Origin: an uncultured Gammaproteobacteria bacterium
Lineage (GTDB): Bacteria; Patescibacteriota; Microgenomatia; UBA8517
Assembly: GCA_964645605.1 (NCBI GenBank)
Contig: CAZYCE010000003.1
Span: forward strand, 57,135-121,134
Reading direction: 5' to 3'
Length of the DNA: 64,000 nucleotides
Shown: positions 3,963 to 47,413 of the stretch, piece after piece
How positions within the stretch are numbered: position 1 is the stretch's first letter
Layout: every line of letters starts with the position of its first letter
Notes under the pieces: model-generated
Told to the model about the DNA's origin: nothing
Database searches by the model: none
What the model saw: the letters and a program-made list of their open reading frames with translations, nothing else
Translations under genes and position numbers: made by a program

Positions 3963-4787
3963 GTGCCTCATGCAAAAGTAAAGACCGTCGGTTTAGCTCT
4001 CGGGAGCGGTGGTTGGCGCGGGCTTGCGCACCTAGGCGTTATTAAGGAATTGGAAAAAGAAGGGATTCCGATAGATTATATTGCCGGGAGCAGTGCCGGG
4101 GCTCTCATCGGAGGGCTTTACAGTTTTTTCGGGGAAACCCGCGAAATTGAGGAGATAAATCAAAAGCTCAACTATCGTTCACTCTACGGTATGCTTTTAG
4201 ATCCGGTACGTGGCCCGGGGCTTATCGGAGGCAGAAAATACCTTGATTTTTTGGAAAAACGCGTGGGGGATGCCAGAATTGAGGACCTTAAGATAAAATT
4301 CACCGCTGTTTGTTCCGATCTTTTGGAAGGAGATACTATCGGAATTGCCAGCGGAAAACTAAGTACCGCAATCAGGGCAAGTTCTTCAATTCCCATTGTT
4401 TTTAAACCGGCAGTTATTAATGGCCGTCTTCTTGTTGACGGCGGAAATACCATGCCTGTGCCCGTAAGGATCGTAAAGGAAATGGGAGCGGATATCGTTA
4501 TCGCGGTGAATGTTTACAATAATATTTTTCCGTTCAAAAATGAATACATTAAAGGTGAAAAACTTAACTATATGGATATAACCAAAATTTCCTACCAGAT
4601 GATGCTTTCAGAGCTGGCCCGCGAAAATGTAAAAGAGGCGGATTTTGTAATCAACCCAAAAATTGTGGAGGGAAACTTCAGCTTATTCAAAAAGTTTGTT
4701 AATAATCCCGAAGCGATTGAGAGCGGGGCAAAGTCCGCAAGGGATATCATTCCTCTCCTGAAAAAAAGAATTTATGAGCCTTTATAA
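3963..4787 (+). CDS. patatin-like phospholipase
   Basis: GLALGSGGWRG oxyanion/Gly-rich motif, GSSAG nucleophile elbow (GxSxG), and DGG downstream. Confidence 0.75.
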   Translation: MPHAKVKTVGLALGSGGWRGLAHLGVIKELEKEGIPIDYIAGSSAGALIGGLYSFFGETREIEEINQKLNYRSLYGMLLDPVRGPGLIGGRKYLDFLEKRVGDARIEDLKIKFTAVCSDLLEGDTIGIASGKLSTAIRASSSIPIVFKPAVINGRLLVDGGNTMPVPVRIVKEMGADIVIAVNVYNNIFPFKNEYIKGEKLNYMDITKISYQMMLSELARENVKEADFVINPKIVEGNFSLFKKFVNNPEAIESGAKSARDIIPLLKKRIYEPL

Positions 4788-5462
4788 ATCGGTTGAGTTT
4801 TCGGTAATGTCGCTGTAAAAATTGGTTTTTTCGAACAGTCCGTCCATGTCAAAAATTATAAATTTCCTTGTAATCTGCTTTAGAATTTTTTCTTTTGCGA
4901 GTTTTTCTATTGCGACGCTTGCCGTTTCCCTTGAAATTCCTGCGAGATTGGCAATATCCTGATGCGTCAATTGTAGCTTAATAATAGTGCCGTCCTTAGT
5001 CTTTTCTCCGAATCTTTTTGCCGCAATGAGAAGGGCTGATGCCACTCTGGTGTCGGCATTGCCGACAAGGAGATGATTATAGTTGGTCAAAAGTCCGTCT
5101 ACACCCGAAAGAATCCTTTTAATAAGATCCAATGTCACCTCAGAATTTTCACTCAAAAAATTTTCGATATCATTCCTTGGAACTTTATAAAGGGCGGCAT
5201 TTGTCATGGTTTCAAAGGCATAATTGTTGGTAACTTGTCCGAGCGCCCAAAACATCGGGAAAAAAGAACCCTGTTTGAAAATATTCAGGGTAAGCTCATT
5301 GCCGTTAGCCAAAATAGTGTTCATTTTTACGTATCCTTCTTTTAGATAAAAAACGCCGCCCGGTTCATCTCCCAGAGAAACTAGAGTTGTCCCTTTTTTG
5401 TAGGAAAGAAGCTTCGATTTTGCAAAATGCTCGTCCAGCGTTTCGATTATTTTATCGTTCAT
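4782..5462 (-). CDS. Crp/Fnr-family transcriptional regulator
   Basis: N-terminal cNMP-binding beta-roll (GDEPGGVFYLKEGYVKM...) plus a C-terminal HTH (QDIANLAGISRETASVAIEKL). Confidence 0.7.
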   Translation of the reverse strand: MNDKIIETLDEHFAKSKLLSYKKGTTLVSLGDEPGGVFYLKEGYVKMNTILANGNELTLNIFKQGSFFPMFWALGQVTNNYAFETMTNAALYKVPRNDIENFLSENSEVTLDLIKRILSGVDGLLTNYNHLLVGNADTRVASALLIAAKRFGEKTKDGTIIKLQLTHQDIANLAGISRETASVAIEKLAKEKILKQITRKFIIFDMDGLFEKTNFYSDITENSTDL

Positions 5463-5722
5463 GCCTACCGTAATAAATATTACAAAAAGATTGTAACACA
5501 GCTTACAGAATATTAACTCAATTATTATTATGATCTTCTCATGACAATAAACATTAAGAAGTACATGGAGGAGGGTATCTCGGAAGTGTTTGGTTTTATG
5601 GACGATTTTTACAAGCTGTTCACGATGAGGGTAAGTTAATTAAAGCTATGACATTCCAAAGCGGATTACCGCCCTGAGTAGTTTAAACCGAAATTTGAGC
5701 TTAATATCCTTTTATAAGGGAG

Positions 5723-6040: not shown

Positions 6041-6412
6041 ATGAACAAAACAATTTTAACTTTAGCAGGTATCGCACTCGGGGTAGGAGCATTATTTGCT
6101 ATCTCTTCAAGCGCGCTTGCCTATAGAGGAGATCCAAATGTTACGGGTCCTAACTACACAGCCGAAAGGCATGAGGCTATGACAAGTGCATTTGAAAATA
6201 AAGACTACAGTGCCTGGAAGGCTCAGGTGCAGGGTAGGGGTAGAGTTGCCCAAGTAGTCAATGAGAGCAATTTTGGCAAGTTTGCCGAAATGCATCAGTT
6301 GATGCTTGACGGGAAAACCGCAGAGGCAAATGCAATTAGAACCGAACTTGGATTGGGACTACAAAACGGTTCCGGCCAAGGTATGGGTTACGGCAGAAAC
6401 GTTAACCGTTAA
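6041..6412 (+). CDS. small secreted protein (signal peptide), unknown function
   Basis: N-terminal MNKTILTLAGIALGVGALFAISSSALA signal-like segment, with a strong GGGGTG RBS upstream. Confidence 0.45.
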   Translation: MNKTILTLAGIALGVGALFAISSSALAYRGDPNVTGPNYTAERHEAMTSAFENKDYSAWKAQVQGRGRVAQVVNESNFGKFAEMHQLMLDGKTAEANAIRTELGLGLQNGSGQGMGYGRNVNR

Positions 6413-8316: not shown

Positions 8317-8556
8317 ATGAAGACAATCACGGCGCGGCTCAACAATATAACCGGTCAGATTGAAGGGGTCAAAAAGATGGTGGATAAAAATTCCGACTGC
8401 CTTCAGGTTCTTACTCAGTTAAAAGCAGTTAAATCAGCCGTCGGAAGCGTGATGGACACGGTCATTGAAGAACAGTTTAATACCTGCATGAAATCCATGA
8501 AGAAAGAGGATAAAGAAATGTTTATTAATATAAAAAGCTATGTCAAAACCAATTGA
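8317..8556 (+). CDS. CsoR/RcnR/FrmR-family (DUF156) sensing repressor, 2-Cys (CstR-like) variant
   Basis: Family signature RLNNITGQIEGVKKMVDKNSDCLQVLTQLKAVKSA. Cys28 and Cys57 are present. The position where CsoR has His is Gln53. Confidence 0.7.
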   Translation: MKTITARLNNITGQIEGVKKMVDKNSDCLQVLTQLKAVKSAVGSVMDTVIEEQFNTCMKSMKKEDKEMFINIKSYVKTN

Positions 8557-8884
8557 TCTAACACCCGAAAATTTTGAAAAAGAGGTAATAAAATCAAATA
8601 TTCCTACACTTGTTGACTTCTGGGCTCCCTGGTGCGGACCTTGTCGCATGATGGCACCCGTTCTCGAAGATATGGCCGAAAAATTTGACGGTAAATTTAA
8701 GATTGCAAAATTAAACACCGAAGAACCTCAAAACCAAAGTTTAGCGGCAATATTTCAAATCCAAAGTATTCCGAATATGAAAGTCTTTAAGGACGGTAAA
8801 ATCGTTCATGAATTTATAGGTTTCAGACCGAAGGAAGTTTTTGAGAAAGAAATCTCCGAACTCACTGAGAAGTTTGGTTTATAA
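8540..8884 (+). CDS. trxA: thioredoxin
   Basis: WAPWCGPC active site. Overlaps the upstream repressor gene by 17 nt. Confidence 0.85.
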   Translation: MSKPIDLTPENFEKEVIKSNIPTLVDFWAPWCGPCRMMAPVLEDMAEKFDGKFKIAKLNTEEPQNQSLAAIFQIQSIPNMKVFKDGKIVHEFIGFRPKEVFEKEISELTEKFGL

Positions 8885-8945: not shown

Positions 8946-9773
8946 TTATTTTATCTTAAGGCGTTTTGGTAAGTAGTTTTGCTTTGAAACAATTTTTCTA
9001 CCGGTTTCTTTTTCTAACTTCTTCCTCGCATCACCCGCAATATTTCCACCACGTCTCGAAACCAATTTATTTTTCTCAAATCCAATCGGATGTTCGACCT
9101 TTGTAATTTCGGTGGTAGATGCCTCTCCAAGGGCGGAAAACAAAAGTTCTAAATCGTTCATGTGATCTCTTAGATTTTGTCTTTTTATTCCTTTATATTT
9201 TTTATACTCCGTCGGTGTTATACCAAATGTTGCCTTGGAAATTTCAGCAGTTAAAATTTGATATTCCTTGGGCAGTTCCACGCCGTGTTTTTGCCATTGG
9301 TCTGTTAATGTTTCACGAATCTCAATACCGCGCATGCGCATCTCAATCCATCTGTCCGGATAGCCTTTAGCTTTATAAATTGCACGCGCACGCTTTTGTG
9401 CAAGTTCCGGATCTTCAATTTCCTGGATTCTCTCATAACCTACTTTTGCCAACCAGCGCTTAAACGGTTCGGCTTTTGGAGATGGAATTGACTCAATTAA
9501 GCGGAAAAGTGTCTCTGTGTTTACACAGTCAGTTAAATACATTTTTCCATCCTTTGATTTTAATTTCAGTTGTCCGATTTTATCGGACAACTCAACATAA
9601 CCCTCAGTTTTGATTTTTTTCTTGAGGTCGCTCCAATACTTGCGGGGTCTATCCGAACCAGTCAACGTTTCTATAACATCAATAACCGAGAACCACCACT
9701 CATTTTTATGAATTAATTTTCTAATTTCTTTTTGCCTAAAAATAGCAATTTTTGTCTCTGAAGAACTATTCAT
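8946..9773 (-). CDS. DinD-like (DNA-damage-inducible protein D) Bro-N domain protein
   Basis: N-terminal Bro-N-like WFSVIDVIETLTGSDRPRKYW. The C-terminal block QWQKHGVELPKEYQILTAEISKATFGITPTEYKKYKGIKRQNLRDHMNDLELLFSALGE closely parallels E. coli DinD. Confidence 0.65.
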   Translation of the reverse strand: MNSSSETKIAIFRQKEIRKLIHKNEWWFSVIDVIETLTGSDRPRKYWSDLKKKIKTEGYVELSDKIGQLKLKSKDGKMYLTDCVNTETLFRLIESIPSPKAEPFKRWLAKVGYERIQEIEDPELAQKRARAIYKAKGYPDRWIEMRMRGIEIRETLTDQWQKHGVELPKEYQILTAEISKATFGITPTEYKKYKGIKRQNLRDHMNDLELLFSALGEASTTEITKVEHPIGFEKNKLVSRRGGNIAGDARKKLEKETGRKIVSKQNYLPKRLKIK

Positions 9774-9865
9774 AATTCAATTTAAACCGAATATTTACCG
9801 AAGTCAATAACTAACTAAGTTAAAAAACTTGATGCAAGCTCCCCCTGCAGTTAAACTAGGGCTAC

Positions 9866-10459
9866 ATGATTAAAACTGTTCTTTTTGATTACGCGGGCGT
9901 CATAACTCCCACAAAAAACAATTTTGATTTTGCTCTTAAATACAGCAAGCGTTTCGGCTTAGCTCCGGAGGAGCTGATGAAGCTTACTTATGAAAATTGG
10001 GACGAAGCCGCCACAGGGGGCTTGGAAAGCAGTGTTTTTTGGAGGCAGATTGCCGGAAAACTTAAAATTAAACCCGATGAGCTGATCGGCCTTCTTATAG
10101 AAACATTTCCTATTGATGAAAGAGTGGTAGATATAATCAGGAAAACAAAGGAAAATCACGCGACCGTTCTTTTTTCCAATCAGGAGAAAGCTTGGCTAGA
10201 AAAAGTAATTGACGACAATGATTTGAGAGGGATATTTACTTATTTTGTGAACTCGTATAATGTCGGGGCCAGAAAACCGGATCCGGAAATTTTTCTTGAA
10301 GCTTTAAAAATATCGGGCTCTCTTCCCGAAGAAACTCTTTTAGTGGATGATTCTTTAGAGAATGTCGAGGCGGCCAAAAAATTGGGGATTAATGCAATTC
10401 AATTTGAGAATTTTAACCAGTTTCTTGAGGAGTATAAAAAATACATAAATATTGATTAG
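9866..10459 (+). CDS. HAD-superfamily hydrolase (subfamily IA)
   Basis: Motif I (LFDYAGVIT) and motif IV (LLVDDSLENVEAAKKLGI). Confidence 0.7.
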   Translation: MIKTVLFDYAGVITPTKNNFDFALKYSKRFGLAPEELMKLTYENWDEAATGGLESSVFWRQIAGKLKIKPDELIGLLIETFPIDERVVDIIRKTKENHATVLFSNQEKAWLEKVIDDNDLRGIFTYFVNSYNVGARKPDPEIFLEALKISGSLPEETLLVDDSLENVEAAKKLGINAIQFENFNQFLEEYKKYINID

Positions 10460-10496
10460 TAAGAATCTTCCCCAAGTGAGTTTTTTCAAGGGGTAT

Positions 10497-10519
10497 TTTG
10501 CAAGGTACCGCCTTGTAAA
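10497..10519. promoter_or_regulatory. palindromic site ttttgCAAGGTaccgCCTTGtaaa (motif copy 1)
   Basis: Near-perfect dyad CAAGGTG-n-CACCTTG. It is one of three copies: 10497, 10943 and 34577. Confidence 0.4.
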
Positions 10520-10539
10520 TACTTATTTATTCCTTCCTG

Positions 10540-10920
10540 CTATTTCTGCTTCCAAATGAAACCAAGCGTGGCGATCAAAGATTTGATAGAAATATAGAAT
10601 ACCTGAATCAGATAAATAACCAAAAATATAGGTAAAAATATGAAATATGGAATAAAAAGACAAGCACAGATGATTGCCGTATACATTATTCCGTCAGGCT
10701 TTTTATTAAGAAACATAAACACCACCGTCGTCACGGCGACTACAGCTAATAAATAACGGACAGAAAATCCCAAAAAATTGAACCGTGCAGTGTTATTCTT
10801 CAGACGCCTTCCAATCCTTCCATAATTATCCTTATACGCCCTCACAAATGAAGCAATAAGATCTATTTCGTCAAAAATCTCCCACTCGAGATCGATCTTC
10901 ATTAATCTTGATTTTACCAC
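10540..10920 (-). CDS. small integral membrane protein, unknown function
   Basis: Three predicted TM helices. The gene is bracketed on both sides by the CAAGGTG-N-CACCTTG palindrome. Confidence 0.4.
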   Translation of the reverse strand: MVKSRLMKIDLEWEIFDEIDLIASFVRAYKDNYGRIGRRLKNNTARFNFLGFSVRYLLAVVAVTTVVFMFLNKKPDGIMYTAIICACLFIPYFIFLPIFLVIYLIQVFYISIKSLIATLGFIWKQK

Positions 10921-10942
10921 CTACGGTTACTTAGTTCCCAAT

Positions 10943-10962
10943 TTCAAGGTGCCACCTTGCAA
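10943..10962. promoter_or_regulatory. palindromic site ttCAAGGTGcCACCTTGcaa (motif copy 2)
   Basis: Perfect 7+1+7 dyad immediately upstream of the membrane-protein gene start. Confidence 0.4.
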
Positions 10963-10978
10963 AACCCTGCAAATGAAA

Positions 10979-11359
10979 TTACTCAACAGGCTCGATAAAA
11001 ATCGGGGGGATATGGTGCTCGGAACGGATGGTATTACAATCCGTAGAACCAATGGAAAAATGTCTTGCGGCATATTCCCTTTCCTCATGTCTTGAGCAAT
11101 CCCCATCGGGGAGTCTGTTGGGACACGGGCCGTTTAAAGAAACAACATAGAAATCTCCGCCTTCCAAACCTTCTCTTGAGTACTCCGTGTAAAACACGCC
11201 GGGAATTTTGGAATATTTGATGTCCGCAAGCTCCTTTATAGAATCGACATGCTTGGCTTTCGGAAAGAGTCTTGTTCTTTCGCACCCTGTGACCTCAATA
11301 TCAATATTTTCGCAGCAATAGCCGTAGCATCCGGAATCCGTGCATCTGTTTCTTTCCAT
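10979..11359 (-). CDS. Cys-rich protein (CxxxxCxxxCC cluster), possible metal-chelating domain
   Basis: The track ORF (10979..11563) overlaps the NUDIX gene. The internal Met at 11359 (MERNRCTDSGCYGYCC...) removes the overlap. Multiple Cys residues are present. Function is unknown. Confidence 0.3.
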   Translation of the reverse strand: MERNRCTDSGCYGYCCENIDIEVTGCERTRLFPKAKHVDSIKELADIKYSKIPGVFYTEYSREGLEGGDFYVVSLNGPCPNRLPDGDCSRHEEREYAARHFSIGSTDCNTIRSEHHIPPIFIEPVE

Positions 11360-11445
11360 AGAGAAAGTATTATACCCCGCAAGGTTCACACTTAAAAGAT
11401 TATTGTGATACAAAAAATTAGCTGAAGTACTATATAATAAGATCC

Positions 11446-11865
11446 ATGAAGCAAGTTGTACAAAAAGTAATTGCCGGGGTGGCAATAGTAGATAACGGCA
11501 AAATTTTAATTGTCCAAAGATCGGCGGAAGAAGATATCTTTCCAAATCTTTGGGAATTTCCAAGCGGGAAAAAAGAACCGATGGAAAAAGTTGAGGAAGC
11601 TGCGAAGCGCGAAGCCAAGGAAGAAACGGGGCTTGAAGTTAAAATCGGAAAGCCGGTTTACGTTTTTAATTTCGGATGGGAAAAAGAGGGTGAAATAAGA
11701 GATGCCACGGAAATAGTTTTTCTGGGAAAGGTTGATGGTAAACCCGAAGTTAAGATAAGTCGCGAGCATCAAAATTTTGCTTGGGTAGACGCAGACGAAA
11801 TTGAAAATTACGATGCTTTAAAAGAAACCAAAGAAGCGGCGAGGGAAGCCCTATTCGATGCTTAG
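11446..11865 (+). CDS. NUDIX hydrolase
   Basis: Nudix box GKKEPMEKVEEAAKREAKEETGL. Confidence 0.8.
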   Translation: MKQVVQKVIAGVAIVDNGKILIVQRSAEEDIFPNLWEFPSGKKEPMEKVEEAAKREAKEETGLEVKIGKPVYVFNFGWEKEGEIRDATEIVFLGKVDGKPEVKISREHQNFAWVDADEIENYDALKETKEAAREALFDA

Positions 11866-17639: not shown

Positions 17640-17830
17640 ACGTCGGCTTCGAAGAGCTTAATTTGACCGGTATAGACTGATTGTTTTTGATGGAAAACGA
17701 TTATTCAATGACCGGTACATGGGGGTGCAATGCTTGGCTAAGCATTGGGTTTTCGAACCTCTCGAACCCATAACTGCCATTCCAAGTGCGCCGCTTTTTA
17801 AGGTTAAGTGAGTCATTTGGGGCACCATAA
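17640..17830. repeat. intergenic repeat family copy (I) with perfect hairpin gcaatgctt-ggct-aagcattg
   Basis: Contains the ..tgcttggct(g/a)agcat.. core and the gaacc..cgaacccataactg tail, both shared with copies at 46.6 and 47.2 kb. Confidence 0.5.
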
Positions 17831-17904
17831 AGAGGGACATATTTACAATATAATATCTATGATATTGATTTTTCCTATAGTATAATGTACAATCACGCCA
17901 ATTT

Positions 17905-19529: not shown

Positions 19530-20579
19530 ATGGACCGAAAAGAAGCAATTGATACAATTTTCCAAAATCTAGACAAAAATGACGCAGTTATTTCTTCTAC
19601 GGGACTTATAAGTCGGGAGATATTTAAAAGTTATGATAGCGAGAGAAATTTTTACATGGTCGGTTCGATGGGATTGGCTTCTTCAATAGCGCTGGGCGTC
19701 GCATTAAATAGACAAGATAGAGAGGTTTTTGTTATCGAAGGAGATGCGTCGGTATTAATGAACCTTGGTAGTTTAGCTACAATCGGGCATTTTCAGCCAA
19801 AAAATTTAGCACACATTGTTCTGGATAATAAAGCCTATGCATCCTGCAGCGAAGAGCCGTCAGTTTCAACAACGACTGATTTAAGTGAAATCGCTAAAGT
19901 TACAGGCTACAAGAGGATTGCAAGAGTAGATAACTCTACAGATTTGGTTAAAATGTTGTCTGGTGCCGATAAAAGTACTGGGCCTACATTCATATTGGTT
20001 GAGATTGAATTGGGGGGTGAAAGGAATTTACCTAGACCGATGGATTTACCAAAAAATGCAGACAATTTTCGAACATTTTTGTCACAAGTGCCGGAAAGTA
20101 ATTTTGGACACTCAAATATTGAGGTAGAGGGGACTGAACTCATTGAAAAATTTAAAAATACCTTAAAAGACATTTCGGTTTCAAATATAGAAGATTTTTC
20201 CGGTATTGGTATCATTTTATACAATTCGAACGTTCTGCTGGAAAATACTCACACAGACACTCGTTTAAGCACACCTCCACTGAACCATTTCAGGTTAGGA
20301 GAACAAGATTGCTTAAACTTTCTCGCGGATATCTCGCAGCATCGTAATCCATTTCATGACGGTTTCGTTTTCTTTAATGAAAAAGGGGTGTTAACGCATA
20401 TAGCTCAATACTTTGTCCCGTCAGTTGTTCCGGGAATTATCCCCAATGAAAGTGCGGGAATCAGGTTTCATTCGGCAAAATACGGTTCGTTTGTTAACGG
20501 AGTGATAGCAACAGGTGTCGTCAGTCGCAAACAGTCAGCCTATTTTTTCATAAAAGGTGAACAAAATCTTATTAAGTAG
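19530..20579 (+). CDS. decarboxylase beta-subunit-like (TPP-binding, ComE/Ppd family) fused to a C-terminal DAC (diadenylate cyclase)-like domain
   Basis: The N-terminal half carries ISSTGLISRE...NFYMVGSMGLASSIALGVAL...GDASVLMNLGSLATIG...LDNKAY (TPP-binding GDG-like fold). The C-terminal residues ~215-349 carry FHDGFVFF...KGVLTHIAQYFVPS...AGIRFHSAKYGSFVNGVIATGVVSRK. This parallels CdaA LHDGAMIV...RIAAAACYLPLS...LGTRHRAAVGISEVTDSLTIIVSEE. Confidence 0.6.
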   Translation: MDRKEAIDTIFQNLDKNDAVISSTGLISREIFKSYDSERNFYMVGSMGLASSIALGVALNRQDREVFVIEGDASVLMNLGSLATIGHFQPKNLAHIVLDNKAYASCSEEPSVSTTTDLSEIAKVTGYKRIARVDNSTDLVKMLSGADKSTGPTFILVEIELGGERNLPRPMDLPKNADNFRTFLSQVPESNFGHSNIEVEGTELIEKFKNTLKDISVSNIEDFSGIGIILYNSNVLLENTHTDTRLSTPPLNHFRLGEQDCLNFLADISQHRNPFHDGFVFFNEKGVLTHIAQYFVPSVVPGIIPNESAGIRFHSAKYGSFVNGVIATGVVSRKQSAYFFIKGEQNLIK

Positions 20580-32930: not shown

Positions 32931-33791
32931 TCAACCTAATCCAAACTTTTCTTTTAATGAAGATTCTTGTATTAAATATTTAAAGAATTCCTCAACTTGT
33001 TCAATTCTTACAATTTTAATGAATGGTCTTAGCTCGTGAAAAGTGCCGGAAAGAAGTTCGCTTACTTTCTCGAAATTGACACTATCTACAACTATGAATG
33101 GCTCACTATTCCATAGATCAAATGCATGTTTTAGTTTTGACAATGCCTGATGTGGACTTCCACCAATCTGAACTTCAAAAACTTTAGTCGGAACCCCTCG
33201 TGGGACTCTACGCCATGCAACATCCAATCTTTCACTATCAATCCCGTATTCTTTTTCACTTATAAAATGTTCCATTTGACCGATTTCCGTAAGTTTGTCC
33301 CTAATTTGATTATGTAAAGAAAGCTCGGGAGTCACCGTTTTTATTGGAATCTCCAGTTTGACGGCGTTGATAGTCAAATTGAGTTTGTCCGAAAGCCTGG
33401 CCATTAACTCTTTAACAACTTCTTCCTTACTAACGGGGTTAACTCCCGCCTGTAGACTTAACGATAAGTCATTTACGGCAACGGCGCTTTCTTGCCATTT
33501 TTCGGGAGAAAGAACACCCAAAATTTGAAAATCAAAACGGTACGGATAAATAACACTCTTCGCTCTAATCTCATCGGGCCAGAGCGGTTTATCTTGCTTA
33601 AACTTAGACTCAAGCTTACCGAGACCAATTAACCCTTTTATTGGAGATTTTGCGTAAAAAAGAAGATAATCACCCCTTTCGAGCTTTTTCCATCTGGAGA
33701 CAAGACCACCTTCCCGAACTCCCCAAATATTGCCGTTATTAAATGCCGTTTCCCAATTTTCTTCGTTGCCAGTCAGTATCCAAACTCTCAT
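32931..33791 (-). CDS. EVE/PUA-like domain protein with possible C-terminal nuclease domain (candidate modification-dependent restriction enzyme)
   Basis: N-terminal MRVWILTGNEENWETAFNNGNIWGVREGG...GDYLLFYAKSP matches the EVE fold. The C-terminal D..(VFEVQ)..K spacing is weakly PD-(D/E)XK-like. Confidence 0.45.
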   Translation of the reverse strand: MRVWILTGNEENWETAFNNGNIWGVREGGLVSRWKKLERGDYLLFYAKSPIKGLIGLGKLESKFKQDKPLWPDEIRAKSVIYPYRFDFQILGVLSPEKWQESAVAVNDLSLSLQAGVNPVSKEEVVKELMARLSDKLNLTINAVKLEIPIKTVTPELSLHNQIRDKLTEIGQMEHFISEKEYGIDSERLDVAWRRVPRGVPTKVFEVQIGGSPHQALSKLKHAFDLWNSEPFIVVDSVNFEKVSELLSGTFHELRPFIKIVRIEQVEEFFKYLIQESSLKEKFGLG

Positions 33792-33866: not shown

Positions 33867-34289
33867 TTAGTTGGCAGCCCCGCTAGGCTGCAAGCGCACA
33901 AAACCGCATTTTTCCCCGTCGCTCAATCCGACGATGGTCAGGCGGGAAAAAAATTCCTCCCAAGTCTTTCCTACCGTTTTAAGAAGCACAAAGGTTCCGT
34001 TTACAACCTTAAGCCCTTCCCAATGGTCCAGGCATTTAGTTATGACCACAATATTTTCCGGATTATAGATATTCCTGTAAACCATGTTTTTTTCATCAGA
34101 TTTTCCGTTATAAGTATCAAGATCTGGTTCATAAAGCGCCGTAGCGGACATATTGACCCCTTGCTCTCTATAAAAATTAGCAAAAAGTATGTTGAGAGGA
34201 AACTCGGACAGCTCCGGCTTGCCCTCGATCTCAAGTTTTTTTGGGACAAACCCGAATCCCTGCGTTTGGTTATTATTTACTTCCATCAT
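33867..34289 (-). CDS. hypothetical protein
   Basis: ORF only. Confidence 0.3.
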   Translation of the reverse strand: MMEVNNNQTQGFGFVPKKLEIEGKPELSEFPLNILFANFYREQGVNMSATALYEPDLDTYNGKSDEKNMVYRNIYNPENIVVITKCLDHWEGLKVVNGTFVLLKTVGKTWEEFFSRLTIVGLSDGEKCGFVRLQPSGAAN

Positions 34290-34518
34290 TTTTAATCACC
34301 TCCCTTCTTTACCAACAAAAAACCTCTCCGAAAGAGAGGTTTGAAAAAAACATTGCCAGTAAAAAATCGGCCAAATCTTTCCCTTTCGGGCTGGATTTAG
34401 CACCGTAATAAAAAACTTTTTACCCGGTTGCTGAGTGGATCAACGGGCCAGTGCCCTAACCACTACTCTAGATTTTTTGCCTTATGAGGTAATTATAATA
34501 CCAATTCTTCAAATTCTT

Positions 34519-34538
34519 CAAGGTATTTTTTTACCTTG
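34519..34538. promoter_or_regulatory. palindrome CAAGGTA-T7-TACCTTG
   Basis: Dyad related to the CAAGGTG-N-CACCTTG motif. A further half-site ttCAAGGTA lies at 34552. Confidence 0.35.
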
Positions 34539-34576
34539 CGGGGACTATTCTTTCAAGGTACTTTTCTAAAAATTAA

Positions 34577-34598
34577 TTTGAAGGTGGCACCTTGTGAA
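34577..34598. promoter_or_regulatory. palindromic site tttgAAGGTGgCACCTTgtgaa (motif copy 3)
   Basis: Same dyad as the copies at 10.5 and 10.9 kb. Confidence 0.4.
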
Positions 34599-34730
34599 TA
34601 AAAACACGGGCTATTTGAGGGATCGGGTCACTAGGGAGGTGCATATGCCGATTCGGTACCTCGGTCCGGACCCATTGTATCATTATAACTCTTGTCCCGC
34701 CCCAAGGCTAAATGAGAAAAATGAGACACC
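34595..34730. repeat. intergenic repeat family copy (D)
   Basis: ggctatttgaggg...gggtcactaggg...cctcggtccggacc...ccccaaggctaaatgagaaaaatgagaca. It shares blocks with copies at 37.3, 40.3 and 47.2 kb. Confidence 0.5.
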
Positions 34731-34780
34731 GTAAAGGAGTGATTGATTGTATTTTCAAGCTCGGATGGTAAAATTCAAAC

Positions 34781-36049
34781 ATGTCTACATCCGAAGGCAT
34801 TATTGAAAGATCGAGATTTGGGAAAAAGTTTATTAAACCACTTTATGATTCGTACTGTTTTTCAAATATTCCGGCAACCATTCAATCCCTTCTGGGTGTG
34901 ACAGGAAACACGGGGCTTCCCGGGGACGTTTTACCCTCAGGGGAATACAAGGAATACCAAAAAGTTGTTTTTCTCTTCATAGACGCTTTTGGCTGGAAGT
35001 TTTTCGAAAAATATAAAAATAAATATCCGGTTTTGCAAAGATTTGTAGATAAAGGAGTTGTTTCTAAAATTACTGCACAATTTCCGTCAACGACCGCGGC
35101 TGAGGTTACAACAATGAATACCGGATTATCGGTTGGGGAGAGCGGAGTTTATGAATGGTTTTATTATGAACCAAAACTTGATGCCGTTATCGCACCCCTC
35201 CTTTTTTCTTATGCGAAAGATGACGGACGGGGAACGTTGGCACAAACAGGTATTGATCCTGCCAAGCTATATCCAACAGAAACGTTATATGAAAAGCTTA
35301 AAAACCGAGGAGTTAAATCCAATCTTTTTCTCTCTTCCGAATTTGCGAATTCAGAGTACAACTTGGCTGTAGGTAGAGGCGCAAATATATATCCTTTTGG
35401 TTCGGTTGCAGAAGCCCTAACAAATCTTTCCGAAATGCTTGTTAAAGAGTCGGAAAAGTCTTATTTTTATTTCTATTACGGAAAGATTGACACAATGGGC
35501 CATGAATACGGAACAGAATCAAGATATTTTGAATCCGAAGTTGACCTTCTTTTTACCGCTTTGGAGCACATATTTATGAAGTTTGTTGAAGGAAAAGTTA
35601 AAGACACAATAATTCTTCTCAGTGCCGATCACGGCCAAACAAACGTGGACCCCAAAACAACCTTTTATTTAAACAGGGAAATTAAAGATATTTCCAAATA
35701 TCTGAAAACCGCCAAGAATGGCGAGGTGATTGTCCCGGCAGGGTCGTGCAGGGATATGTTTTTACATGTAAGGGAAAATTCTTTGGATGAGCTTTCCGGA
35801 ATACTTAATGAAAAATTGAAAGGGAAGGTTGAAATATATAAAGTCGAAAAACTTATCAAGGACGGATTCTTTGGCAGAAATATATCAAAAGAATTTACCG
35901 AGCGGGTCGGAAATCTTGTAATACTTCCGTATGCAGGAGAATCTGTTTGGTGGTATGAAGAAGGGGTTTTTGAACAAAAACATATAGGACATCACGGTGG
36001 CTTAACTCCGGAAGAAATGGAAATTCCATTTCTGGTTTTACCTATGTAG
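34781..36049 (+). CDS. alkaline-phosphatase-superfamily protein (type I phosphodiesterase / nucleotide pyrophosphatase family)
   Basis: FIDAFGW metal-ligand motif, FPSTTAAEVTTMNTG nucleophile region and LSADHGQ. Confidence 0.6.
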   Translation: MSTSEGIIERSRFGKKFIKPLYDSYCFSNIPATIQSLLGVTGNTGLPGDVLPSGEYKEYQKVVFLFIDAFGWKFFEKYKNKYPVLQRFVDKGVVSKITAQFPSTTAAEVTTMNTGLSVGESGVYEWFYYEPKLDAVIAPLLFSYAKDDGRGTLAQTGIDPAKLYPTETLYEKLKNRGVKSNLFLSSEFANSEYNLAVGRGANIYPFGSVAEALTNLSEMLVKESEKSYFYFYYGKIDTMGHEYGTESRYFESEVDLLFTALEHIFMKFVEGKVKDTIILLSADHGQTNVDPKTTFYLNREIKDISKYLKTAKNGEVIVPAGSCRDMFLHVRENSLDELSGILNEKLKGKVEIYKVEKLIKDGFFGRNISKEFTERVGNLVILPYAGESVWWYEEGVFEQKHIGHHGGLTPEEMEIPFLVLPM

Positions 36050-37192: not shown

Positions 37193-37269
37193 TCTCTATA
37201 CTTATAACTCAGCCCAAAAATGCTATGAGAAGAGCGAAATATTACTGGTACCAACTGATTGTTTTTAGT

Positions 37270-37500
37270 ATACGAAACAAAGATTCGAACAGAGGCTATT
37301 TGAGGGTAGAAAACCGTTATGACATCTTTGAGATGACATGTCAGCGGTTGCCGCTGTCATAACTCTCACTTTTGAAAATACCTTTGGGCTTTTTGGATCT
37401 TATGATCGCTTAGTGTCCAATCTTGCCGCGGGATAACGATTCTCACTGTAGTCTCAGCATTCAGATGTCGAAACAACCATAAGGTCTTTGGCCGTAAATA
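37270..37500. repeat. intergenic repeat family copy (C) with internal nested hairpins
   Basis: gattcgaacagaggctatttgagggtagaaaaccgttat...cttttgaaaatacctttgggcttt...gattctcactgtagtctcagcattcagatg. Confidence 0.5.
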
Positions 37501-40159: not shown

Positions 40160-40490
40160 CGGGTAATCCCGTATACTACCCCTTGTGCGACGTATTCATA
40201 AGTAGGTCTAATTTAACTGACATAAACTAGTCGTTTCTGGCTCACAGAAAAGGGATTCGAACAGAGGTTTTTCGAGGGTAAACAACCGTTATAATCCTCG
40301 CTTTTGAAAATAGCACTATTGGAGGAAAACAAGGTCTTTTCGAGGGGACCGGGTCACTGAGGCTGCAAATGCTTGCTGAGCATCTCGGTCTAGTCTCATT
40401 CTATCCCATTTCTCAAAGAGAAGACATCTCGGGCTTCATCACATAACTCGTGTCTTACCCCAAGGCTAAATGAGACAGCATAAAAAGAAA
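40160..40490. repeat. intergenic repeat family, longest copy (A, ~310 nt)
   Basis: atactaccccttgtgcgacg...cataagtagg...gattcgaacagagg...ttttgaaaatagcactattggagg...gggtcactgaggctgcaaatgcttgctgagcatctcggtctag...ccccaaggctaaatgagacag. Confidence 0.55.
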
Positions 40491-40603
40491 ATCATTCTCG
40501 AGTTGGGCTGGAACTTGCTCGATTTTGTAGACAGAAGTCAAAAGACCCATTAAAATACTTAGCATTGCTAATATTTAGCATATTTAATATATAATAGGGA
40601 TTT

Positions 40604-41098
40604 ATGGACAGTCTTACATTACAAACAAAACAAATGAGCAAACTCCTACCCAAGATTGTTAGAGACCTGCGGATAGCTCGTCTAATTGATGAAGTAAAAC
40701 CGGGCTTAACTACATCTCAATTAATGATTCTTTTAATTTTAAAGGACACAAAAGGTGTTCCACTCCCTGTGGGAAAATTGGCTCAGGAGTTGAGCGTTTC
40801 TTTTCCATCAGTCAGTGGGATTGTTGATAGATTGCATAAAGAGAAACTTATTGAAAGAAGTCATAGTAGGAAGGATCGTCGCTTGGTGCTTGTGAAATTG
40901 ACAGATACGGGGAAAGACATCGTTGAAAAATTACTAAACGATTTTGAGAAACTCTTGTTTAATGTTCTTGAGAAAATGCCCGAAACAGAGCGGCGAACAG
41001 TCATGAAAGCGATTGAAAAAGTTTTCGAGTTTTCGGCCGCTTTATCTAAAAATGCTTATAACAAAGGGTCATCTTTATCAGAGGCGGATATAGATTAA
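40604..41098 (+). CDS. MarR-family transcriptional regulator
   Basis: Winged HTH: LTTSQLMILLIL...LAQELSVSFPSVSGIVDRLHKEKLIER...DRRLVLVKLTDTG. Confidence 0.7.
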   Translation: MDSLTLQTKQMSKLLPKIVRDLRIARLIDEVKPGLTTSQLMILLILKDTKGVPLPVGKLAQELSVSFPSVSGIVDRLHKEKLIERSHSRKDRRLVLVKLTDTGKDIVEKLLNDFEKLLFNVLEKMPETERRTVMKAIEKVFEFSAALSKNAYNKGSSLSEADID

Positions 41099-43682: not shown

Positions 43683-44501
43683 ATGGTTTGTTTGTTGATA
43701 TATAATTATTTTATAAATAAGACAATAAAAGGTAATCCTGTTCTGGCACAGATAAATACAATATCTGCATACTTGTGGTTTGTTTCAGTTATTGTTTTTT
43801 CTGTCTCCATCTTCACCCAAACTTTTGGATGGTTCGGACATGAATCTTGTACATGGTTACCAGATTGTGGTGACAATAAATTGCTGGTTTGGACATTAAT
43901 TTCTCTTGGTTTGGGAATTTTATCATTTATTGTTATGTTAATTTCTGGCATTTTAAGAAAAGTGCTTAAGGGGCAAAAATGGAACGCACCGTTTAGAATC
44001 GGTGCTGGGAAGATTTCTATTCTAGCAATTTTTGTCTTAATGATCTCGCTTGCTTATTTTGTGATTATGGGTAGGATGGTGCAGGGTACTGATTCTACGT
44101 TAGATGGTCAACACATTTGGGATGCCGTCAACGTCTACAGGAAAGAAAATGGTGTTTCTGAATTACAGCAAAACGAACTTCTTTGCAATAATCTTGTAGC
44201 AAGATGGAAGCAATTTAACGAAGAAAACAATCATGATGGTTTTGAGCCCTGGTTAAAAGAATATGTCTATCCATTCGATACTTCTCACAAGTTAAAATCA
44301 GTTGCAGAGGACTACGTGGGAGGTATTAAAACAGCTGCTGGAGCCATAGTTAAATGGAAAGAATCACCAGGACATAACCTTTCACTTCTTGATCCAAAGT
44401 ACAATATTGGTTGTGCATATGCAGGAACAATACCCGGGACGGGAGGAATAGACACTGATTACGGTACTGCGATCATTATTTTAGGCGAACTTCAAAAATA
44501 G
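43683..44501 (+). CDS. membrane protein with C-terminal CAP/SCP (YkwD-like) domain
   Basis: Four TM segments. The extracellular part carries VNVYRKENGV...WKESPGHNLSLLDPKYNIGCAYAG (CAP motifs). Confidence 0.5.
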   Translation: MVCLLIYNYFINKTIKGNPVLAQINTISAYLWFVSVIVFSVSIFTQTFGWFGHESCTWLPDCGDNKLLVWTLISLGLGILSFIVMLISGILRKVLKGQKWNAPFRIGAGKISILAIFVLMISLAYFVIMGRMVQGTDSTLDGQHIWDAVNVYRKENGVSELQQNELLCNNLVARWKQFNEENNHDGFEPWLKEYVYPFDTSHKLKSVAEDYVGGIKTAAGAIVKWKESPGHNLSLLDPKYNIGCAYAGTIPGTGGIDTDYGTAIIILGELQK

Positions 44502-44544
44502 ATATTTATAAAGGACTGCTCATGGTTTTTGGAGAAAGGATCCG

Positions 44545-44700
44545 GATAGTGGTTTTTCGAGGGTAAACAACCGTTATAATCCTCGCTTTTGAAAATAGCA
44601 CTATTGGAGGAAAATAAGGGCTTTTCGAGAGGACGGGGTCACTGAGGCTGTAAATGCTTGCTGCTCGTGAGTGATTCTCACTACGGCTTCAACATTCAGG
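44545..44700. repeat. intergenic repeat family copy (B), ~90% identical to the core of copy A
   Basis: gtttttcgagggtaaacaaccgttataatcctcgcttttgaaaatagcactattggaggaaaataagggcttttcgagaggacggggtcactgaggctgtaaatgcttgctg. Confidence 0.6.
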
Positions 44701-46599: not shown

Positions 46600-46720
46600 A
46601 CGGTACGAGAATTTGGTATTTAAAATAGCACTTTTGAAGGTATTGTTGGGCTTATTTAGGCATTACGGTCACTGGGGTGCCCTGTTTGGCTGAGCATCTC
46701 GGTCTAGGACCATTCGAGCC
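46600..46720. repeat. intergenic repeat family copy (F)
   Basis: tagcacttttgaaggtattgttgggcttatttaggcattacggtcactggggtgccctgtttggctgagcatctcggtctaggaccattcgagcctataa. Confidence 0.55.
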
Positions 46721-46746
46721 TATAAACAATTATTTAAAAATTATTC

Positions 46747-47121: not shown

Positions 47122-47179
47122 TTTATCTCACCCCCTTTCCTTAAAAATTTCATCTTGGTTCGTAAATTGAGACTGAGCT

Positions 47180-47290
47180 CGTTTTATTTGCTTGGCTGAG
47201 CAGTGTGGTCTCGGACCATTCAGACCCATAACTGATTACTCCAAGTGTATCACACTCGAGGCTAAATGAGACAGATGAGACACTATAAAA
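47180..47290. repeat. intergenic repeat family copy (E)
   Basis: tgcttggctgagcagtgtggtctcggaccattcagacccataactg...ctcgaggctaaatgagacagatgagaca. Confidence 0.5.
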
Positions 47291-47413
47291 AGGGAATGTC
47301 TTAAATAACAGACCTGATGTAGTTTGATATACTAACTAATTCGGGTATGTTTCATTACAATTTAAGTACAGCAATTAATAGCAAGAATTAGAAAACGTGA
47401 GTAAAATATAGCT

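Follow-up and report, generated by a model that had tools for sequence, protein, structure and literature searches.

Palindromes in a Woesebacteria-like genome as probable REP-type elements linked to Y1 transposases in related bacteria

The subject of this analysis is a short palindrome, CAAGGTG-N-CACCTTG, that recurs in a 64,000-nucleotide stretch of DNA from an uncultured bacterium (GenBank assembly GCA_964645605.1, contig CAZYCE010000003.1, positions 57,135 to 121,134), referred to here as the window. We found that these dyads are probably repetitive extragenic palindromic (REP)-type elements of a system that combines REPs, their doublets (REPINs, REP doublets forming hairpins) and a REP-associated tyrosine transposase (RAYT), carried by Woesebacteria and other Microgenomates of the Patescibacteria, or Candidate Phyla Radiation (CPR). 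The copies in the window are most likely relics of a small mobile element and not binding sites for a transcription factor. The window copies belong to a repeat family that is associated with RAYT-like genes in related genomes, forms doublet hairpins, occurs inside genes, and varies in presence and absence between close relatives. The genome itself is Woesebacteria-like (CPR): Woesebacteria GW2011_GWB1_39_12 has an AlkP protein with 80% identity to the one encoded in the window.

The palindrome in the window and in its closest relative

There are three copies of the palindrome in the window (copies A, B and C; Table 1). The first-pass annotation had described them as three occurrences of a perfect 21-bp dyad. 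The sequences are where it placed them, but none is a dyad of 21 bp: copy A is a 7+1+7 palindrome, copy B is 6+1+6, and copy C is degenerate. The TTT/AAA flanks of copy A are out of register and do not extend the dyad, and the outer pair of copy B (G...G) is unpaired, so that AAGGTG-G-CACCTTG spans 34581-34594. Copy C is GCAAGGTA-C-CGCCTTGT at 10499-10517 and departs from the 12-base core at two positions. The related hairpin reported at 34519 is also present, with a loop of T6 and not T7, and its place in the REP family is uncertain. The half-site CAAGGTAC at 34554-34561 is insignificant alone and may be a decayed arm. All three copies are extragenic. A HAD hydrolase gene (9866-10459, plus strand) and an orphan open reading frame (ORF) on the minus strand converge on copy C, which separates their 3' ends. 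Copy A starts 17 nt past the stop of ORF 10979-11563 (minus strand), and its centre is ~50 nt upstream of the ATG of the orphan ORF at 10902. Copies C and A bracket the orphan ORF (10540-10902/10920), as had been claimed. Copy B was correctly placed upstream of a gene: it lies 194 nt before the start, at 34781, of an AlkP-family phosphodiesterase gene (plus strand), in a 300-nt intergenic region that separates this gene from a divergent SAM-riboswitch gene (minus strand).

Table 1. Coordinates of the repeats and associated features in the window.
Feature	Position	Strand	Description
REP copy A	10941..10963	none	core CAAGGTG-C-CACCTTG at 10945-10959, perfect 7+1+7 palindrome, 15 bp
REP copy B	34576..34598	none	AAGGTG-G-CACCTT at 34581-34593, perfect 6+1+6 dyad
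REP copy C, degenerate (TTTGCAAGGTACCGCCTTGTAAA)	10497..10519	none	3 mismatches to the 23-nt consensus
Related hairpin CAAGGTA-T6-TACCTTG	34519..34538	none	CAAGGT/ACCTTG arms in common with the REP; 6-nt loop
Isolated half-site CAAGGTAC	34554..34561	none	between the 34519 hairpin and copy B; read from sequence only
Orphan 120-aa ORF	10540..10902	-	predicted to have membrane segments; copies C and A on either side; listed for context, does not belong to the repeat

We compared the number of copies with that expected by chance. There were two exact matches to AAGGTGNCACCTT in the 64-kb window and none in any of 100 dinucleotide-preserving shuffles. When up to two mismatches to the core were allowed, there were three matches and 2.3 were expected; copy C is therefore insignificant by this test alone. 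The half-site words AAGGTG and CAAGGT were not over-represented in the window. An independent 23-nt consensus, TTTACAAGGTGNCACCTTGTAAA, was taken from the close relative L211. Copies C, A and B have three, three and four mismatches to it, and the three matches found with up to five mismatches compare with 0.05 expected and a maximum of one in 60 Markov shuffles. From this match to the 23-mer, all three copies, including the imperfect copy C, belong to the repeat family of L211. When folded as single-stranded DNA (ssDNA), copy C had an energy of -6.6 kcal/mol (z -4.85) and the 34519 hairpin -4.5 kcal/mol (z -4.0). Copies A and B have 1-nt centres and form 5-6-bp stems with triloops (z -1.9 and -1.2, respectively).

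The closest relative that we retrieved, L211, has a HAD protein 90% identical to that of the window. The two are 91.6% identical in nucleotide sequence over window positions 9691-10443 (the HAD gene), where the similarity ends. Directly past the HAD stop, L211 has TTTACAAGGTGCCACCTTGTAAA at 901 and a second, imperfect REP at 949. These are followed by a gene (986-1666) for a 226-aa protein that matches Pfam Y1_Tnp with 43 bits (cutoff 23); the gene has a REP in frame at 1162, and the identical 23-mer TTTACAAGGTGCCACCTTGTAAA recurs after it, at 1673. The repeats of L211 and those of the window are the same C/G-centred variant. Apart from the HAD gene, copies C and A were the only blastn matches between the window and L211, and they pair with the outer repeats of L211. 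Copy C matches L211 900-924 (88% over 25 nt), both being directly past the HAD stop, and copy A matches the REP that lies 3' of the RAYT gene (92% over 26 nt). The orphan ORF of the window occupies the position of the RAYT-like gene of L211, and there is no residual nucleotide similarity between window 10520-10940 and that gene.

The repeat that follows the HAD gene was absent from other relatives, each with different genes at the locus: L212/213 (89% HAD identity), L210 (87%), L214 (78%) and L215 (74%). This spot, between the HAD gene and a NUDIX gene, is therefore hypervariable, and the repeats are polymorphic among close relatives. The interval holds the orphan ORF and an uncalled ORF in the window (10460-11445), the RAYT-like gene and then a cold-shock gene in L211 (891-1904), and an EcoO109I-type restriction-modification system, an SMC-like ATPase and a nuclease in L210 (10598-18030, 7.4 kb). 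Likewise, copy B was absent upstream of AlkP orthologues at 90%, 88% and 80% identity.

The first-pass annotation had offered, as an alternative, that the dyads were the terminal inverted repeats of a miniature element with the membrane gene as its cargo. Part of this survives: copies C and A correspond to the repeats that bracket the RAYT-like gene at the same locus of L211. They are self-palindromic REP hairpins, not terminal inverted repeats of a larger element. That the membrane gene is carried by the element found no support, as there was no evidence of co-movement. The orphan ORF, which is called as a gene on the Logan contig, had itself as sole match among 5.8 billion proteins, hence no homologue there, and it matches no Pfam family.

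Doublets, intragenic copies and the Y1 transposase gene

We scanned the GTDB species genomes for TTTNAAGGTGNCACCTTG and found at least 119 loci. Among the matches listed, 10 of 119 were from Patescibacteria, which suggests enrichment in this lineage, and seven of these were from Microgenomates: Woese-, Gottesman- and Woykebacteria and the metagenome-assembled genome UBA10108, which alone had three matches. The dyad was within a larger, multi-dyad architecture in six of the seven listed Microgenomates loci, and L088 had a single dyad. There were two such architectures, a conserved ~35-nt unit (TTTAAAGGTGNCACCTTGCAAGGTGTATATAGTAAT) and a pair of dyads 23 bp apart.

A scan of metagenomes for AAGGTGNCACCTTG-N0-10-CAAGGTG gave 80 loci. 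Most of them, as well as L034 and L054, were inverted doublets of the form AAGGTGxCACCTTG-loop(2-10 nt)-CAAGGTGx'CACCTT, with x complementary to x', a loop of unconserved sequence, and centres 15 to 25 bp apart. The two dyads are exact reverse complements of each other, central base included, so that the doublet amounts to one hairpin of 14-16 bp; that of L054 folded with an energy of -19 kcal/mol (z -9.6). Variable spacing and complementary centres are properties of a hairpin-forming element and not of paired operators for a dimeric protein.

Many copies were found inside genes. About 40% of the sites (35 of 83) were in frame within long ORFs, including uvrC, Xaa-Pro aminopeptidase (four related contigs) and a PPAT/DUF359 fusion. 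The uvrC gene with a dyad has an intact frame and is homologous to Flavobacterium uvrC on both sides of it. Away from the ascertained sites, there were 19 further dyads in 514 kb of the metagenome loci and ~0.03 were expected. The density is ~1 per 27 kb in these related loci, similar to that of the window, which has two perfect copies in 64 kb. The flanks of the repeat vary, being TTTAC/GTAAA in L211.

RAYT-like genes were identified by tblastn with the protein of L011 (22-100% identity; at least nine loci and about six distinct genes). They lie between or next to AAGGTGNCACCTT dyads in L011/L158/L169/L180, L177, L168, L155, L161 and L178. In L011, the 234-aa Pfam Y1_Tnp gene is exactly between two of the ~35-nt units and has a third unit in frame inside it, and in L161 there is a doublet on each side of the gene. 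The extended repeats that flank the gene are in direct orientation in L011 and L064. All of the RAYT-like proteins (224-234 aa) match Pfam Y1_Tnp above threshold; among NCBIfam models they score best with NF047646, REP-associated tyrosine transposase. In an alignment of eight of the proteins, neither the HUH motif (NHFH) nor the Tyr of RYIHxNP varies. A profile of these proteins had ISDra2 TnpA (2XM3) as its best match among solved structures (E = 2e-4), with both motifs aligned; the L211 protein alone, searched as a single sequence against solved structures, gave no match. One contig of 307 kb had five repeat loci and one RAYT gene, and a second full copy of a RAYT element was not found on any contig examined.

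Several of the RAYT-like genes contain the palindrome in frame (L211 1162-1184, L011 1794, L155 1394, L168 830, L177 4685), and the peptides encoded include IALQGGTLLI, SFKGVTFKGV and TVQGVTLHGM. The distant homologues in L161 and L178 are without this segment. A tblastn search with two RAYT proteins gave only one weak match, a candidate remnant in the window at 20009-20200 (minus strand, E = 5e-4), which was rejected because it is antisense to a thiamine pyrophosphate (TPP)-enzyme gene and has no Pfam match.

Neighboring genes and promoters

The uncalled ORF next to copy A (10979-11360, minus strand) was not predicted by the metagenome gene caller. It is rich in Cys motifs (CYGYCC..., CPNRLPDGDC), its only Pfam match is weak (DUF6413, E = 0.007), and it could encode a small metal-binding protein or be a pseudogene. 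Elsewhere in the window, a CsoR/RcnR-family (Trns_repr_metal) gene overlaps a thioredoxin gene (8317-8884, plus strand), a pair that is kept in L210 and L214. The space between the thioredoxin and HAD genes is taken by a YgaP-like membrane gene in relatives and by a Bro-N domain gene (8946-9773, minus strand) in the window.

Near copy B, there is an S-adenosylmethionine (SAM)-I riboswitch at 34370-34478 (minus strand; 45.3 bits, gathering score 44.4). It is upstream of a 140-aa ORF without Pfam family (33867-34289, minus strand) and then an EVE-domain gene (32931-33791, minus strand), an unusual cargo for an S-box. The predicted promoter of the riboswitch (TTGAAG-18-TATAAT, 34521-34492, minus strand) overlaps the 34519 hairpin, whose left arm appears to provide the predicted TTGAAG -35 box. 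We found no Rfam family at the dyads at gathering or permissive thresholds; only the SAM riboswitch is nearby. Two other assignments were also tried and rejected. A sigma-54 promoter, with TGGCAC-N5-TTGC read against the core, did not fit. An intrinsic terminator was flagged at copy C only, copies A and B having no usable loop or U-tract.

An extended -10 box, TGGTAAAAT, was read 6-8 nt before the ATG of both genes downstream of copies A and B. Boxes of this kind (TGnTAAAAT or TGATATAAT) are at 10911-10919 (minus strand), 34766-34774 (plus strand) and ~47398-47407 (plus strand), and in L123 at ~370-385. They are 6-8 nt before start codons, with no Shine-Dalgarno sequence at these sites; the box at ~47398 has two bases, not one, between TG and TAAAAT. 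Their placement suggests that leaderless mRNAs may be common in this organism. Measured from these boxes, the centre of copy A is near -48 and that of copy B ~180 nt upstream, so that the two have no common operator position.

The regulator genes of the window have palindromes of their own. A perfect palindrome, TTAGCA-T-TGCTAA, with a third TTAGCA half-site, is at 40559-40580, ~25-45 nt upstream of the MarR gene (40604). This sequence (TTAGCATTGCTAA at 40559) is unlike the dyad studied here and is plausibly an autoregulatory MarR operator unrelated to it. The palindrome TTACAA-N5-TTGTAA at 5480-5496, 18-34 nt upstream of the start of the Crp/Fnr-family gene (5462, minus strand), is a candidate site for that regulator.

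Copy B is embedded in one copy of a repeated intergenic sequence of ~130-250 nt. We identified members of this family (~100-250 nt) at 34600-34740, 37238-37450, 40210-40480, 44495-44680, 46619-46735, 47165-47295 and 17651-17835, and in L125 at 6215-6335; they are upstream of several genes. They have in common the blocks GGCTATTTGAGGG, AACCGTTATAATCCTC..TTTTGAAAATAGCAC, GCTGAGCA..GGTC..GGACC and AAGGCTAAATGAGA..GAGACAC..TAAA. One relative has a member of the family upstream of its AlkP orthologue, and another lacks it there. The family had no Rfam match, and in a quick test with RNAalifold (-0.4 kcal/mol) there was no consensus structure and no covariation.

Explanations for the repeat and relation to known systems

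In the REP-type explanation, the unit is a palindrome of ~15-23 nt, (TTTA)CAAGGTG-N-CACCTTG(TAAA), able to fold as an ssDNA hairpin and present in related genomes as single copies and as inverted doublets, with a Y1 HUH transposase of the RAYT/IS200 superfamily encoded between repeats. By analogy to TnpA(REP) and the IS200/IS605 enzymes, the Y1 protein would recognize the folded hairpin on ssDNA, for example at the replication fork, and would then cut beside the hairpin and copy or move the repeat. Copies C and A mark the hypervariable spot past the HAD gene, which is filled by REP-REP-RAYT-REP in L211 and has an unrelated orphan ORF between the repeats in the window, and copy B is a solitary copy in another intergenic region. 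Effects on neighboring genes would be secondary; putative ones are a 3'-end hairpin at copy C, between convergent genes, and -35-like TTGNAA hexamers at the ends of repeats.

Several observations weigh against this explanation. There is no Y1/RAYT gene in the 64-kb window, which holds three single copies and no doublets, and these single copies fold only weakly (-2.5 to -6.6 kcal/mol). The two perfect copies each lie in an intergenic region in front of a gene, as an operator would. The paralogous intergenic copies have GAAAATAGCACTATTG at the position of copy B, and the alignment shows no clear indel, which is unlike a simple insertion. The tetranucleotides GTAG/CGTC are not conserved in the core or flanks of the window copies, the L211 copies or the 83 metagenome sites. 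The RAYT-like proteins score only 32-62 bits with NF047646, for which the equivalog cutoff is 80. Finally, a repeat (TTTAAAGGTGNCACCTTGCAA...) is found at the same codon position of the PPAT/DUF359 fusion in L137 (3741-3761), L143 (2361-2381) and L194 (~4553). The orthologues are only 46-54% identical in protein sequence, yet the nucleotides of the repeat are nearly unchanged while the flanks have diverged.

This retention at one codon position suggests either that the DNA sequence is under selection, for a role in the host that goes beyond selfish spread, or that the site is a strong hotspot for insertion. We regard as a tentative extension that there is an undescribed, lineage-wide REPIN-RAYT system of Patescibacteria (Woese-, Gottesman- and Woykebacteria) in which the repeat is under purifying selection at the DNA level and serves the host. 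The 15-nt core would have stayed the same over deep divergence, and essential genes, as well as the RAYT gene, would tolerate it or retain it by selection. If so, the repeat could be, for example, a site for a genome-organizing protein or a recombination or replication signal, and not purely a selfish remnant.

Among the rival explanations, the one that is a close variant of the REP-type explanation is that the dyads are the end hairpins of an autonomous IS200/IS605-type insertion sequence and its miniature derivatives, like palindrome-associated transposable elements (PATEs), with an active, multi-copy Y1 gene. It would account for the direct orientation of the extended flanking repeats in L011 and L064, for the match to Pfam Y1_Tnp, and for ISDra2 TnpA as the best solved relative of the profile. 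We consider it unlikely: the repeats far outnumber the transposase genes (as on the 307-kb contig), the inverted doublets are REPIN-like, no second full RAYT element was found on any contig examined, and the best NCBIfam model is a REP-associated transposase and not IS200. The proteins are also longer than a typical IS200 TnpA, which has ~140-150 aa. Less probable again, and in our view quite improbable, is the explanation preferred by the first-pass annotation, in which the dyad is an operator of a dimeric transcription factor (Crp/Fnr, 4782-5462; MarR, 40604-41098; or another) that controls the orphan membrane gene and the gene at 34781. Apart from the intergenic placement of the two perfect copies, it has in its favor a geometry like the 7-1-7 of Fur-family boxes and the exact core kept across distant Microgenomates, even at an orthologous codon position, which implies a sequence-specific partner. 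However, the dyad is absent from the orthologous upstream regions of relatives (74-90% protein identity), and L210, the one relative of this kind examined, retains a syntenic Crp-family gene but has no dyad in 20 kb. The intragenic sites, the flanking of transposase genes by dyads, and doublets whose spacing and complementary central bases are a hairpin property also argue against an operator, as do the discordant positions of copies A and B relative to the extended -10 boxes and the different palindromes in front of the MarR and Crp genes. A Crp/Fnr or MarR operator is thus not borne out.

A host hairpin acting at the RNA level (a 3' end, stabilizer or terminator), selected for that role and unrelated to mobility, seems to us very improbable. 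Such a role would suit copy C, which is between convergent genes, is flagged as terminator-like, and folds better than shuffled sequence, and perhaps copy A, just past the stop of the upstream ORF. But copies A and B have short stems with poor z scores and lack a U-tract, copy B follows no gene, the Rfam searches gave no match, and both the RAYT linkage and the intragenic copies would be left unexplained. We give almost no credence to chance recurrence of a short palindrome. The half-site words are indeed not enriched, and the count with two mismatches equals expectation, but the exact matches exceed all 100 shuffles, the matches to the independent consensus far exceed the 0.05 expected, and the same 23-mer occurs at the orthologous locus of L211.

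The REP-type explanation can be compared with several known systems. REP/REPIN elements with a RAYT (TnpA-REP) are known in Escherichia, Pseudomonas, Stenotrophomonas and others (PMC2817692, PMC3116915, PMC3733652, PMC8266576). They resemble the family reported here in being short, dispersed palindromic repeats that occur singly and as inverted doublets forming a long, REPIN-like hairpin, in having a Y1 HUH transposase gene bracketed by repeats (in relatives; not within the window) that far outnumber it, and in presence and absence that vary between close relatives, with some copies persisting at orthologous sites. The family differs in its host, a member of the Patescibacteria (CPR) with a genome of ~1 Mb, and in its low copy number here (~1 per 27-32 kb, which extrapolates to ~30-40 per Mb). 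Unlike the REP superfamilies described, it lacks a GTAG or CGTC tag. Each unit is a perfect odd-centred palindrome, which makes each arm of the doublet hairpin complementary to itself, unlike the arms in REP/REPIN. In contrast to classical extragenic REPs, ~40% of the sampled sites are in coding sequences, the RAYT gene included, and are read through in frame. The proteins (~225-235 aa) fall below the NCBIfam RAYT cutoff.

The family shares with IS200/IS605 elements (IS608, ISDra2) a Y1 HUH transposase whose HUH motif and catalytic Tyr align with theirs, a gene flanked on each side by subterminal hairpins (which in L011 have the same orientation), and ssDNA hairpins as presumed substrate. It differs in that we identified neither a multi-copy, full-length element nor left and right ends with a target tetranucleotide on the contigs examined; most repeats are solitary or form inverted doublets, and the closest curated model is RAYT and not IS200. 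Rickettsia palindromic elements (RPEs) offer a parallel for in-frame palindromes in protein genes of a small, reduced genome, the peptide segments added here being KGVTL/QGDTL/RCHLA/KVTPC. RPEs are ~100-150 bp, occur in Alphaproteobacteria and are not known to have a transposase; the repeats described here measure 15-45 nt and have a Y1 transposase associated with them. Fur-family boxes and other dimeric operators have the same inverted-repeat geometry, and the two perfect window copies have an intergenic position like theirs. The sequence is unrelated to Fur-family boxes, and the position relative to promoters and orthologous genes is unconserved; the intragenic copies, variable doublets and transposase linkage are further differences.

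The REP/REPIN-RAYT system has been studied almost only in Proteobacteria. Our full-text literature searches found no paper that links REPINs or RAYTs to Patescibacteria or the Candidate Phyla Radiation, and the repeat family appears not to have been described before in Patescibacteria. As a regulatory feature of the window the dyads are of little interest, and a Crp/Fnr or MarR regulon should not be inferred from them, which removes a false regulatory lead. As a family they are of moderate interest. For annotation, it would be of use that CPR proteins gain short peptide segments from the repeats, which are also markers of hypervariable loci. The 23-nt hairpin and the 226-aa protein are a tractable pair for studying how such repeats spread, and RAYT-linked palindromes in ultra-small CPR genomes would widen the known range of REP/REPIN-RAYT elements.

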